A stretch of 63,115 nucleotides of DNA from a virus (lineage: Duplodnaviria; Caudoviricetes): positions 1 to 63,115 of IMG/VR virus record IMGVR_UViG_3300036715_000947; one strand, 5' to 3'. Numbering within the stretch: position 1 is the first letter of the stretch; every line of letters begins with the position of its first letter. Of the stretch, positions 29,635-32,833 are shown piece after piece. The position numbers were made by a program, and so were the translations under genes. The notes under the pieces were generated by a model. The model had not been told where the DNA came from, did no database searches, and saw only the letters and a program-made list of their open reading frames with translations.

Positions 29635-31977
29635 CTACCCGCCTACTGAGGCAAGAAGTGACTTGGAAATCTTGAGCGGTGCACGGCGCATGGTGACAAG
29701 CTCAAGCGCTCCCATGAACGCGTCCACATCATCGTCTTTCGCTGCGTTGGGGAAGATGGCACAGCTCTCGACGAAATCATGCGCCCACTTGGTGCCCTTC
29801 AGGATGCGCACCAGACCTGCCTCCTGGATAGGCGACACCACATTGGCACGAAGCACCTTGTCTGTGGAGTGCACCACCTCCACAAACGGGATGCGCGTGA
29901 GGCGCGATAACGCCTGTATGACCGCCTTGCCCGTGGCAGAGCCGCCACCTTCGATGCCCACCTGCGACGGTCGCCATTTGTCGTACAGTTGCTCGACCTT
30001 GCGCTCCAACTCAGGGAACTCGATCTTCTCGCAGAACAGATCGAGCATGACGTAGCCGTCCTTGGCTATGCCCATGGTGACGCAGGCCGCGTTGTCGTTG
30101 CTCTGCTTGCCGCCTGCCGCCGTGTCCCAGTACTGAATGATCTGCTCCAATTGGAAGAAGACTTTCAGCCTCTCCACCTCATCGCCACCAATGCGTACAT
30201 CGGCGGGTGGCCCAGAGACATATTTCCAATTGTCGCGCAAGAAGATGACACCCTCTGCGGCAGACGGCCTCTGCTGATAGAGACTGGCCCACACACGAGA
30301 GCCCGTGCCTACTTCGTCGATGTCACCAGACCCGTAGCGTATGCGGTTCAGCGCTTCGATGGGATAGCGTGCGGGGTGCAGCGCCTCACCTTTGCGGCGA
30401 TACTTTTCGTCCTCTTCCGCAATGGCCGGGTACTTGGCAACCTCCCATTTCTCGCCGCCCTTGCCCATGGCCGTGAGCAACCGACCAGCTAGATCGTCGG
30501 CGTGCCATCGAGTGTTGTGTGCCACCAAGCCGTTTGCGATGAAATTCTCTGTGCCCTCTACCTCAATATCGAAGACCTCTTGCTCACCAACGGGCTCGAT
30601 GGCGCAAATTTCATCTTCGGTGAAGTCGTAGATATTCGGCGGCAGCGCTGAGAATTCGTGAAGTCTTTCCGTAGCCAACTGCGAGGTTGCAGTCGTTGCA
30701 CAAGAGTCCTCGCGTCTTACCGGTTCGGTGGTCGTGGTCAACGCATAGCTTGGCGTCCCAATGAGCCCTTGTGTTTTGACTGGTAGGTGGCTTCCGGCAA
30801 ATGGCGCACTTTCCTCCCTGCTGTTTAAGAAGCGCGTCGAACTCTTCCGCAGTAATGCCGTAGCGATATTTGAGACGCGACGCCCTGCGCGATTCAGGAT
30901 TGACTGAAGGCGGTCGCACACCATTCGCCCAGCGGGTTTTGTTGTAGTGAGATTTGCAGAGTCCTTTGCAACTGACTGGCTCCGTACACCCATCGACAGA
31001 GCACTCAACTCCGCGCCAGTGGCCGTAACTGACACTAGCTTGTCGCCCACTTTGAGATTTCTTAGCCTTGTCCATACAAGCGCCTCGCTCCTGCGAACGA
31101 GGAAAGGGTGGCGTTCGTTCGCTTTCACAAGCCTACCTGAACTCGTTCTGATTTCATAGCAGAAATCAGAACCTTGGCTCTTCCAATGTTTTACGAACGA
31201 CGTTGACAGCGCACCCTTATTGAACGTTGCAATCTCATCGCCAGCACGAACATCAAGCATGGGCTTCTCTGTGCCATCGGCCATCAACACCGGAGTGTCG
31301 CCAGTGACACACATGATCAACAGAATGCCGCCTCCGGGCTCTGCGCGAGTCTTGAGTGTAGTCTCGTACCAGTCCCAAATACTTTGACGCGTAGTGACAG
31401 AGTACGCCTCCTGCGCGTCCTTAACAGGATCATCGATCATCAACACGCGTGCTCCACGGCCCGTGACGCCCGTTCCCACGCCCGCGCTCTTGTACGCACC
31501 CTTGTGGCCCACAATCTCGAACTGTTCAGAATTGCGCAAGAACGAGCCCTTGGACGTAACAGTGCGCACTGACGAACTGCTCAAGGTGGTGTCGGGGAAC
31601 AACTGCGCGTACTCTTCCTGATCAATAATCTTCTGCACGTCACGATTCATCATGGACGCGAGATCATTCGAGTAGCTGGTTGCGATGAACGTCAGGTCAG
31701 GGTAGCGCCCTAGCGCATACGCGGGAAACCGCCTGGACACCATCTCAGACTTGCCCGAGCGAGGCGGGGCCATGATCATCAAGCGCGGAGACTTGCGATC
31801 AATGACATCTTGAAGGAATTGGTCTAGCTTTGCCGCCAACTCGTAATGAAACCAGCCAGCGTTGTAGTCGCTCTTCGTCCAGAGGATGAACGCCAGTAGA
31901 TCGCGCTTCGCCTTGGCGCGTATGGCGTCAATCATGCTCAACTTTTCGGCGCGGCTTAGCGTCTCCAGTTCAAGCAC
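29635..31977 (-). CDS. terL: terminase large subunit precursor containing a 266-aa intein (spliced product about 514 aa)
   Basis: Walker A MAPPRSGKSE, Walker B LMIDDPVK, LIM|TRWH.DDL.GRLL, nuclease WDTA and DDDVDA. Confidence 0.95.
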   Translation of the reverse strand: MLELETLSRAEKLSMIDAIRAKAKRDLLAFILWTKSDYNAGWFHYELAAKLDQFLQDVIDRKSPRLMIMAPPRSGKSEMVSRRFPAYALGRYPDLTFIATSYSNDLASMMNRDVQKIIDQEEYAQLFPDTTLSSSSVRTVTSKGSFLRNSEQFEIVGHKGAYKSAGVGTGVTGRGARVLMIDDPVKDAQEAYSVTTRQSIWDWYETTLKTRAEPGGGILLIMCVTGDTPVLMADGTEKPMLDVRAGDEIATFNKGALSTSFVKHWKSQGSDFCYEIRTSSGRLVKANERHPFLVRRSEALVWTRLRNLKVGDKLVSVTATGAELSALSMGVRSQSVAKDSANLTTTKPAGRMVCDRLQSILNRAGRRVSNIATALLRKSSTRFLNSREESAPFAGSHLPVKTQGLIGTPSYALTTTTEPVRREDSCATTATSQLATERLHEFSALPPNIYDFTEDEICAIEPVGEQEVFDIEVEGTENFIANGLVAHNTRWHADDLAGRLLTAMGKGGEKWEVAKYPAIAEEDEKYRRKGEALHPARYPIEALNRIRYGSGDIDEVGTGSRVWASLYQQRPSAAEGVIFLRDNWKYVSGPPADVRIGGDEVERLKVFFQLEQIIQYWDTAAGGKQSNDNAACVTMGIAKDGYVMLDLFCEKIEFPELERKVEQLYDKWRPSQVGIEGGGSATGKAVIQALSRLTRIPFVEVVHSTDKVLRANVVSPIQEAGLVRILKGTKWAHDFVESCAIFPNAAKDDDVDAFMGALELVTMRRAPLKISKSLLASVGG
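30514..31311 (-). mobile_element. intein in terL
   Basis: Begins CVTGDTPVLMADG, block B ANERHPF, L.VGD, ends VFDIEVEGTENFIANGLVAHN; +1 residue Thr. Confidence 0.93.
30611..31075 (-). CDS. Endonuclease VII-type (His-Me finger) homing endonuclease nested out of frame inside the terL intein
   Basis: C..DGC...KGLC..HY zinc finger, LKYRYGIT.EEF..LL..Q.GKCAIC, LCVDHDH.TGK.RGLLC..CN.A.G; AGGAG/GAGG SD before ATG. Confidence 0.9.
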   Translation of the reverse strand: MDKAKKSQSGRQASVSYGHWRGVECSVDGCTEPVSCKGLCKSHYNKTRWANGVRPPSVNPESRRASRLKYRYGITAEEFDALLKQQGGKCAICRKPPTSQNTRAHWDAKLCVDHDHRTGKTRGLLCNDCNLAVGYGKTSRILSAAAEYLRLHRR

Positions 31978-31979
31978 GG

Positions 31980-32531
31980 CTACTCCCCATCGATTGGCGT
32001 AGGTTTCTTCAGTCCTTCAAGCCGTGAGTAGAGGAACGCATCGATTTCCTCGGTAGGCTTGCTGTCGAACGGATTCTTGCGTGGATCGACCACCTCAAGG
32101 CGCTCGGAGGCAATGCCGAGCAGGTGGTCCATGCGATCCATGATTGCAAGGAGCGTGGCGGCGCGTCGCGGGTCGTTGCGCCCAGCCCACTGCGCAAGCA
32201 ACATGTCGTTGAGCCGCTCAAGCTGAAGCTGACGATGGCTGCTGGCCTGCTCCTGAATGTGCGCGTAAACGCGGTCCATCTCACGACGCACGATGGCGGC
32301 GGCCTCTCTCTCCGAGCAGCCGAGCGAGTGCGCGATGCTGGCGTAGGAGGCCCCGCCCTTGCGCAGCAACATGACTTGGTAGACGCGCTTGGTGTACTCA
32401 GGATCGTGTGACCTGTGCTTGGAAGAGACGGTATCGGGAACGTCCGTGCGAAAATCCACGGGCACCTTCCTAGCGAGAACAGACTTGATCTTTCGCCTCG
32501 GAAGTATGTCTCTCTTTTTGACAGTGGCCAT
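31980..32531 (-). CDS. terS: putative terminase small subunit (HTH)
   Basis: LRKGGASYASIAHSLGCS helix-turn-helix; immediately upstream of terL. Confidence 0.7.
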   Translation of the reverse strand: MATVKKRDILPRRKIKSVLARKVPVDFRTDVPDTVSSKHRSHDPEYTKRVYQVMLLRKGGASYASIAHSLGCSEREAAAIVRREMDRVYAHIQEQASSHRQLQLERLNDMLLAQWAGRNDPRRAATLLAIMDRMDHLLGIASERLEVVDPRKNPFDSKPTEEIDAFLYSRLEGLKKPTPIDGE

Positions 32532-32563
32532 GTGCGATCCCAGCGTTGCGCGATTGGTTGGTG

Positions 32564-32833
32564 TTACTCAGCAGGCGAGAAGTCGACGTACATCTTGTCG
32601 CCCTGTTTGAACTTTCCCCACAGAGCGGGATTGTTGACGAGCAACGTGATGCTGCCACTCGGCGTCCACATTGCGAAAGAATTGTCTTCGTCGCTGCCGT
32701 CTTGCGGGTAGGCGCCGTTCTTGCACACAGGCGCCATGGTCAGCGTCTCACCGCACTTGTCCATATTTGTGTGGTCAGCGAAATGTTCCTGCACTCCGTT
32801 GACCATGACCTTTGCTCTCATCTGTGCGCTCAT
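32564..32833 (-). CDS. conserved hypothetical protein
   Basis: MRAK..V, EDNSFA.WTPSG.I.L.V.NP, YVDFSPA. Confidence 0.75.
   Translation of the reverse strand: MSAQMRAKVMVNGVQEHFADHTNMDKCGETLTMAPVCKNGAYPQDGSDEDNSFAMWTPSGSITLLVNNPALWGKFKQGDKMYVDFSPAE

Follow-up and report, generated by a model that had tools for sequence, protein, structure and literature searches.

The large terminase gene (terL) of IMG/VR virus record IMGVR_UViG_3300036715_000947, a complete, metagenome-assembled virus record whose single contig of 63,115 bp was analysed at full length (hereafter the window), contains a class-1 intein, and the codons of this intein are read a second time, on the same strand and one frame behind, as a gene for an endonuclease VII-type protein. 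We consider it very probable that the two together constitute a mobile intein at the TerL6-f site whose homing endonuclease is a separate, overprinted gene, and which splices and homes by the mechanism proposed below. The anatomy of this element, its conservation, the frame-specific selection acting on it, its predicted folds and its movement between divergent terL genes are established here from the window and from relatives in phages, prophages and metagenomes.

The terL gene occupies positions 29635-31977 on the minus strand, as do all features described below, and in the list of open reading frames (ORFs) it starts with GTG and encodes a precursor of 780 amino acids (aa), intein included. 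In Pfam it matched Terminase_6N (E=1.3e-14), Terminase_6C (E=6.1e-16) and Intein_splicing (E=1.8e-16; 60.7 bits against a cut-off of 35.8), and in PHROGs it corresponds to phrog_38 (terminase large subunit; E=2e-94). When it was aligned with the terL genes of four actinophages, the intein borders fell between LLIM and CVTGDT and between VAHN and TRWH, that is, at terL residues 223-488 (30514-31311), giving an intein of 266 aa that begins with Cys1 and ends with His265-Asn266, followed by Thr at position +1. The same alignment delimited an N-extein of terL residues 1-222 (31312-31977), ending in GGILLIM, and a C-extein of residues 489-780 plus the stop codon (29635-30513), starting with TRWHADD, the ATPase coupling or C-motif.

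The intein has two splicing lobes. The N-terminal lobe (intein residues 1-99; 31015-31311) carries Cys1 in block A and N-E-R-H68-P-F in block B, and the C-terminal lobe (residues 224-266; 30514-30642), with blocks F and G, ends in TENFIANGLVAHN. Across 47 intein sequences aligned in the terL frame, Cys1, His68 and Asn266 are invariant (47 of 47) and His265 is conserved in at least 90%; Asn65, Arg67, His68, Pro69 and Phe70 of block B are invariant, as are Trp80 and, in the C-terminal lobe, Asp248, Thr254, Asn256 to Ala259, Gly261 and Asn266. The residue at position -3 from the block B His is usually Thr, and is Asn (Asn65) in this intein. AlphaFold2 predicted both lobes with block-mean predicted local distance difference test (pLDDT) values of 82-98 over residues 1-100 and 93-97 over residues 231-266, and in Foldseek the predicted lobes matched mini-intein crystal structures, namely those of Ssp and Npu DnaB and Mtu RecA (6frg, E=4.1e-10; 4o1r, 1mi8 and 2in9; target template modelling scores 0.77-0.88). 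The intervening linker (residues 100-223; 30643-31014) is open in the terL frame but unconstrained, and the prediction for it is one of disorder, with pLDDT below 50 and without secondary structure; Ser, Thr, Arg and Ala make up 47% of it, no Pfam family matches it, and a Pfam search of terL gave no nuclease family in this frame at E<=0.1.

The nuclease is encoded by the nested ORF (30611-31075; 154 aa plus TGA), which overlaps intein codons 79-234. Its ATG lies 902 nucleotides (nt) after the terL start and the ORF is therefore in frame +2, equivalent to -1, of terL. Besides its entry in the ORF list, it is recognised by Endonuclease_7 (PF02945; E=1.9e-20, 73.0 bits against a cut-off of 23.6), which aligns with residues 66-150 over profile positions 2-81 of 82, and by PHROGs as endonuclease VII (E=1.2e-30). 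The Pfam range defines the catalytic core, of the beta-beta-alpha-Me type (30626-30880). In an alignment of 47 nuclease sequences, Cys90, Cys93, Asp113, His114, His116, Cys126, Cys129 and Asn130 are invariant, and these eight residues align with Cys23, Cys26, Asp40, His41, His43, Cys58, Cys61 and Asn62 of T4 endonuclease VII, which we take to be its zinc-ligand cysteines and its Asp-His ... Asn catalytic core. The profile of this alignment matched the sequence of T4 endonuclease VII (1e7d) with E=6.6e-8. The AlphaFold2 model built on it has a mean pLDDT of 87.1, with residues 1-11 below 50, and the predicted fold gave 1en7, 2qnf and 1e7l (T4 endonuclease VII) and 3fc3 (Hpy99I) as its top Foldseek matches, with probabilities of 0.97-1.00. 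Upstream of the core lies a Cys-rich module (residues 25-44, with Cys25, Cys30, Cys40 and His43; 30944-31003; pLDDT 91-94), in which Cys25, Cys30, Cys40 and Tyr44 are invariant and His43 nearly so, and which represents a putative zinc finger that may bind zinc and contribute to DNA recognition. Structured parts of the two products share about 21 codons at the 5' end and about 10 codons at the 3' end of the overlap, so that true double coding of structured protein is short because the linker is disordered; at the 5' overlap the nuclease N-terminus is disordered as well.

The start of the nested gene is embedded in conserved intein codons. Its ATG consists of the last base of the Val79 codon (GTA) and the TG of the Trp80 codon (TGG; 31072-31075), and it is preceded by a Shine-Dalgarno (SD)-like stretch, AGGAGCGAGG (31083-31092), whose GAGG ends 7 nt before the ATG and which encodes R-R-S-E-A of the intein in the terL frame. 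We compared this start across 79 loci, comprising the window and 78 distinct relatives that were left after 16 duplicates, 2 cut loci and 4 non-nested loci had been dropped. The aligned start codon was ATG in 69 and GTG in 10, and in all 79 it sat on the TG of the invariant Trp80 codon; where a purine core precedes it, this often coincides with the codons for a conserved Gly turn.

Stop codons across the 462-nt nested ORF number 0 in the terL frame, 7 in the third frame and 4, 9 and 10 in the antisense frames. The first-pass annotation of this DNA had described intact splicing blocks in a 266-aa intein, a central stretch rich in Ser, Thr and Arg that holds no nuclease motifs, a complete endonuclease VII-type nuclease read in the -1 frame from 31075 to 30611 with a zinc finger at its N-terminus, an SD and ATG of its own within codons of the N-terminal splicing region, and two frames free of stops. 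All of these are borne out by the profile searches of both frames, the alignments and the stop counts, with zinc binding by the N-terminal module remaining putative.

Selection acts on the nuclease frame and not on the central stretch of the intein, which behaves like an unused frame. The per-frame comparison of non-synonymous with synonymous substitution rates (omega), which the first-pass annotation had put forward as a check, was made by the Nei-Gojobori method on 10 pairs drawn from the window and four actinophages, with the codon alignment built on the nuclease frame. Omega was 0.12-0.38 in the nuclease frame wherever the synonymous rate (dS) was computable, versus 1.07-2.34 in the terL frame (1.26-2.34 over the segment from the zinc finger to the core, which lies mostly inside the linker) and 0.98-1.60 in the unused third frame. 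For the close pair Phlyer and Mortcellus, compared over the whole nested ORF, there were 14.3 synonymous and 12.7 non-synonymous differences in the nuclease frame (omega 0.28) and 6.7 synonymous and 20.3 non-synonymous differences in the terL frame (omega 1.20). Between lineages, amino-acid identity was 46-56% in the nuclease frame versus 25-30% in the terL frame.

The same layout recurs in a large family. Searched with tblastn, the nested protein found matches beneath genes annotated as 'terminase' in the Gordonia phage Angelicage (55.3% identity, E=7e-50), in the Vivi2 group of Gordonia phages (47.7%) and in Pipefishvirus mycobacteriophages (48.6-49.0%), and in Angelicage, Vivi2, Phlyer and Mortcellus the offset of the nested ORF from the terL start is, modulo 3, that of the window. 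A scan of IMG/VR yielded 258 confirmed nuclease relatives among 265 pattern matches, of which 80 were kept, and a scan of one genome per prokaryote species yielded 20 among 100 matches. Other inteins with a nuclease in an alternative frame, for which the first-pass annotation had recommended looking, are thus common among these relatives: in 96 of the 100 loci (80 of 80 from IMG/VR and 16 of 20 on bacterial genome contigs) the nuclease frame trails that of the intein and exteins by exactly one. Both intein halves are found in 94 loci, and two loci cut at the 5' end (L039 and L069) retain one half each; none of the 96 nested loci has a stop in the terL frame, against 2-27 stops in the third frame. 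Every one of the 78 distinct loci has an open intein with Cys first and Asn last. The insertion point is always between (I/V)(M/Q) and T-R-W-(H/S), with Thr at +1 and Trp at +3 in 78 of 78 loci and Arg at +2 in 77 (one locus was dropped for its short flank), and the flanking DNA has the consensus ...aTnatG before and ACnCGnTGG...GAc after it.

Members of the family occur on isolate contigs of Bradyrhizobium, Mycolicibacterium, Oribacterium and Dysosmobacter and in metagenome bins assigned to Anaerolineae, Gallionellaceae, Geobacteraceae, Caulobacteraceae, Opitutaceae, Saccharimonadales and more, with the proviso that binning of phage contigs can err. The window adds a carrier of its own kind. 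No terL of the phage collection exceeds 36.5% identity to its exteins, the nearest genes of phages outside the family being those of Aaphi23, S1249 and others (<=36.5%); phages of Proteobacteria are both the best matches listed and the commonest organisms for its portal protein and its lambda-J-like tail-tip protein, and no tRNA genes were found in the window. From these matches the carrier phage looks non-actinobacterial.

The intein and its nuclease appear to travel as a unit. Among 70 sequences with enough flank, pairwise nuclease identity correlated with splicing-lobe identity (Spearman rho 0.42) more than with extein identity (rho 0.22). Two locus pairs illustrate this: L005 and L008 share 88% of their nuclease and 86% of their splicing lobes with extein flanks only 38% identical, and L026 and L052 share 82% and 89% with flanks at 33%. 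Conversely, the window and its nearest terL relative in IMG/VR, L105, have extein flanks 93% identical (C-extein 92%, N-extein 84%), with splicing lobes at about 72% and nucleases at 55%. The pattern is as expected if the unit moves between divergent terL genes and turns over within a lineage.

Several members of the family vary in form. L105 (terL 479-2851, nested ORF 1387-1875) carries a clearly different allele of the same intein; its nuclease starts with GTG, and the family motifs DHDH and CNDCN are replaced in it by DHDR and CNSCN. Of the 78 distinct loci, 77 have an intact nuclease ORF; in the sole decayed copy, L099:2795-3277 from an uncultured bacterium bin, this ORF is cut short by a stop that follows 49 codons and its DHDH motif is altered, within an open 272-aa intein frame. 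In a subfamily, nested nucleases of 184-236 aa and inteins of 297-341 aa owe their greater length to one or two further copies of the N-terminal Cys-rich module (L045, L048, L051, L053, L055, L058, L061-L064, L067, L068, L071, L072, L077, L081, L083, L084, L093-L095, L097 and L098), and there the C-extein often starts with TRWS instead of TRWH. L085 (Oribacterium sp.) and L086 (Dysosmobacter sp.), whose assembly names share a prefix, have identical DNA over the nuclease match and the same intein and extein coordinates and scores, which suggests either a phage shared across two genera or cross-contamination. Four loci from Nonomuraea (L101-L104) are without intein halves and non-nested, and one of them (L101:2710-3717) encodes a free-standing 335-aa protein with two tandem endonuclease VII domains and Cys-rich modules before each.

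In the mechanism that we propose, translation of the terL frame would give the 780-aa precursor, in which the two Hint lobes (residues 1-99 and 224-266) would fold around the 124-residue disordered linker, and Cys1, His68, His265-Asn266 and Thr+1 would carry out standard class-1 splicing to leave a TerL of 514 aa. On the same late mRNA, ribosomes would initiate independently at the ATG at 31075, with GAGG preceding it and the Trp80 codon underlying it, and would produce the 154-aa protein that combines the Cys-rich N-terminal module with the endonuclease VII-type beta-beta-alpha-Me nuclease. During co-infection, this nuclease would cut intein-less terL alleles at or near the junction of (I/V)(M/Q) with TRW(H/S), and repair of the cut allele would copy in the intein together with the nuclease. 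Independent translation, the specificity of cleavage and current activity in this phage are the parts of this scheme that we infer.

It may further be that the out-of-frame layout is a design of long standing, stable and under selection, rather than a transient accident that precedes an in-frame or split intein, a proposition for and against which we see the balance as about even. It would envisage one large family of TerL C-motif inteins in phages and prophages of many phyla, in which the nuclease start is hard-wired into the codon of an invariant Hint Trp, the conserved Gly turn ahead of it often provides purines resembling a ribosome-binding site (RBS), and an in-frame version does not exist. 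Since the nuclease would have its own start in the Trp codon, its dose and timing would be uncoupled from those of TerL. Among proteins of 271-2000 aa, 177 candidates included no full in-frame fused intein, a blank that is weak evidence, and only one of them reached E<=1e-10. This protein, P0001 (476 aa, on a single 2,097-nt JGI contig), runs from the terL N-extein and the N-terminal intein lobe in frame into the endonuclease and ends at the stop of the latter; it represents either a variant, frameshifted or fused, or an error of sequencing. If the design is indeed old, the family would offer a natural model for the long-term sharing of DNA by two proteins and for translation that initiates within an essential gene.

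A number of observations weigh against an overprinted, independently translated and active homing endonuclease. The equivalent of T4 Glu65 is Val133 in the nested nuclease, and the Foldseek E-values of its model are weak (about 0.009-0.013, over 66-79 aligned columns for the endonuclease VII chains). In the nuclease frame dS is saturated for most pairs with the window, and those omega ratios are therefore undefined. The terL frame stayed open in 1143 of 5000 synonymous-codon shuffles of the window ORF (23%), and the same test left it open in 3517 for Angelicage, 594 for Vivi2, 1281 for Phlyer and 1147 for Mortcellus; an open terL frame is thus only mildly improbable and weak evidence when taken alone, and what carries weight is the Pfam match together with the recurrence of the layout in other genomes. 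A GGAG, GAGG or AGGA core lies within positions -18 to -4 of the start in only 42 of the 79 loci. There are 0 sigma-70-like promoter sites in 30400-32700 and the RNA structure near the nested start is not unusual (z = -0.38), so the late terL mRNA is the likely template. No RNA-labelled runs holding this stretch of the window were listed, neither our analysis nor the related papers that we read showed directly that the nested ORF is translated or that its product cleaves DNA, and no intein-less allele of the window terL lineage was found in the IMG/VR scan with the C-extein, whose one relative (L105) bears the intein.

Among other explanations, the one that survives best, although we regard it as unlikely, is that the nested ORF is a relic, the intein having become fixed as a mini-intein with a long linker and the nuclease having lost its expression or activity in this phage. 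The family does show decay, as seen in the early stop of L099 and the DHDR and CNSCN of L105, and the lack of an empty allele near this phage would also be in keeping with fixation. Yet the window ORF is complete and has all invariant catalytic and zinc residues, the omega values of 0.12-0.38 were obtained on lineages that include the window, and 77 of the 78 distinct relatives are intact.

Somewhat less probable still is a role of the nuclease for the phage itself, in addition to homing or in its place, for example as a packaging-associated resolvase or nuclease that acts with the terminase, with the intein kept as the bearer of a useful gene. T4 gp49 and terminase-adjacent HNH proteins work with terminase in packaging. 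The fold and catalytic core of the nested protein are those of a junction-resolving enzyme, its gene always lies within a packaging gene and would be co-expressed late, and its free-standing relatives bear the annotation endonuclease VII or Holliday junction resolvase. Against this, nuclease and intein move together between terL genes that share only 29-40% identity in their flanks, and close terL alleles carry very different nuclease alleles (55% identity between the window and L105), a pattern that fits selfish turnover better than host function.

We attach a slightly lower probability again to synthesis of the nuclease by -1 ribosomal frameshifting from terL, which would yield a fusion of N-extein, N-terminal intein and nuclease in the place of an independently initiated protein. 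The nuclease frame is indeed the -1 frame and is open for 19 codons upstream of the window ATG, and the DNA of P0001 encodes precisely a fusion of this kind. However, an in-frame stop no more than six codons upstream of the start in 45 of the 79 members, immediately before it in 5 of these, argues against frameshifting, as does the retention of ATG or GTG in all 79.

Two compensating assembly indels that displaced an in-frame endonuclease domain, which the first-pass annotation had named as a finding that would overturn its proposal, can be dismissed as having a negligible probability: the window was assembled from metagenomes and a frame switch on the N-terminal side would fall between the N-terminal lobe and the zinc finger with no conserved residues lost, but the same relative frame is kept in 96 of 100 loci from independent samples and isolate phage genomes, the nuclease start and stop are its own and conserved in position, and Logan contigs of four runs labelled as microbial mat or sediment metagenome span 30300-31500 with no indel at a word depth of 13-118 (since the record may itself stem from these runs, they check only its assembly).

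An overprinted homing endonuclease gene in a mobile intein, which would splice out of TerL and be copied into empty alleles, can be set beside several known systems. Fractured genes with split inteins, reportedly described by Dassa and colleagues in 2009, carry a free-standing VSR-like endonuclease gene between the two halves. They resemble the window element in having a separate nuclease gene where the endonuclease domain of an intein would sit; in those systems, host gene and intein are divided between two ORFs, whereas here the intein frame reads through and a single precursor would be made. In the ShiLan-type insert of a phage DNA methylase, an HNH ORF is hidden out of frame within an insertion that is open in the frame of the host gene, as here; its authors found no RBS, proposed leaderless initiation at a GTG and discussed translation of the ORF as open (Arsenault, Gosselin and Gogarten, Genes 2025, PMC11855218). 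That insert is without a splicing domain and is thought to stay in the protein as a loop, in contrast to the full Hint domain, SD-like motif and ATG of the window. A cyanobacterial dnaX intein offers a closer parallel, having a LAGLIDADG homing endonuclease overprinted in the +2 frame of the same strand, with an omega that is low where the nuclease is read and raised in the frame of the intein (Phillips, DeSimone and Gogarten, bioRxiv 10.64898/2026.09.14.751524, which credits Gorbalenya 1998 with the first proposal). It differs from the window element in its LAGLIDADG family, its dnaX host gene and its occurrence in cellular genomes.

At the same insertion point, TerL6-f inteins have been reported in the putative ATPase coupling motif (C-motif) of terL in cluster B3/B4 mycobacteriophages, and the TerL6-f intein of Chandler gp6 spliced in a MIG (MBP-GFP) reporter (Kelley, Lennon, Belfort and Novikova, mBio 2016, PMC5050341); the portions of that study available to us report no endonuclease for TerL6-f and describe cleavage assays for TerL1-b and TerL1-c only. 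The TerL6-f intein of Phlyer shares its insertion point with the window intein, aligns with it and contains the same out-of-frame ORF, and judged by this alignment the window intein is a TerL6-f site insertion in a Terminase_6-type terL. As the Chandler intein DNA is 99.9% identical to that of Phlyer, a family member with an out-of-frame ORF and a disordered linker does splice.

The first-pass annotation had proposed a dual-coding selfish element of a kind not yet described and had rated it the best candidate for a new system in this DNA. The first half of that proposal agrees with the frame-specific selection, the start kept in 79 of 79 loci, the disordered linker and the mobility of the unit. 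Its novelty does not stand: out-of-frame intein endonucleases, direct homologues of this one included, are already in preprints of 2025 and 2026, and no new category is opened here because the architecture is in print. Gosselin, Arsenault and Gogarten (bioRxiv 10.1101/2025.01.02.630785) report 63 actinophage inteins with non-canonical endonucleases, among them a cluster 47 with Angelicage, Affeca, Keitabear and Sedona, and propose that such elements arose when a free-standing endonuclease gene invaded an intein. The strand, the relative frame (their 'frame 3', our +2) and the position of the endonuclease domain are as in the window, and their in-frame linker is without recognisable structure where that of the window is predicted to be disordered. 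Angelicage in particular has the same nuclease family (55.3% identity), the same terL insertion site and borders and homologous splicing lobes. A literature search gave no further paper on an out-of-frame endonuclease VII in an intein.

What the window and its relatives add to these reports is a carrier that looks non-actinobacterial, the spread of the family across phyla and the pinning of the nuclease start to a Trp codon. The survey of Gosselin et al. was drawn only from PhagesDB, and the portal and tail-tip proteins of the window carrier resemble those of phages of Proteobacteria; neither the Trp-codon start nor the selection figures appear in the readable part of their main text. In the public records that we looked at, only 'terminase' is annotated over the nested nuclease, and since gene callers miss it, an intein of this kind is readily mistaken for a mini-intein or for one in decay. 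The window and its relatives show the layout known from actinophages to be that of a much more widely spread family, which, with purifying selection on the nuclease and a start pinned to the Trp codon, offers a clean system for the study of internal initiation and of homing by a trans-acting nuclease. The family also bears on the view of intein origin in which splicing came first and the nuclease invaded later.

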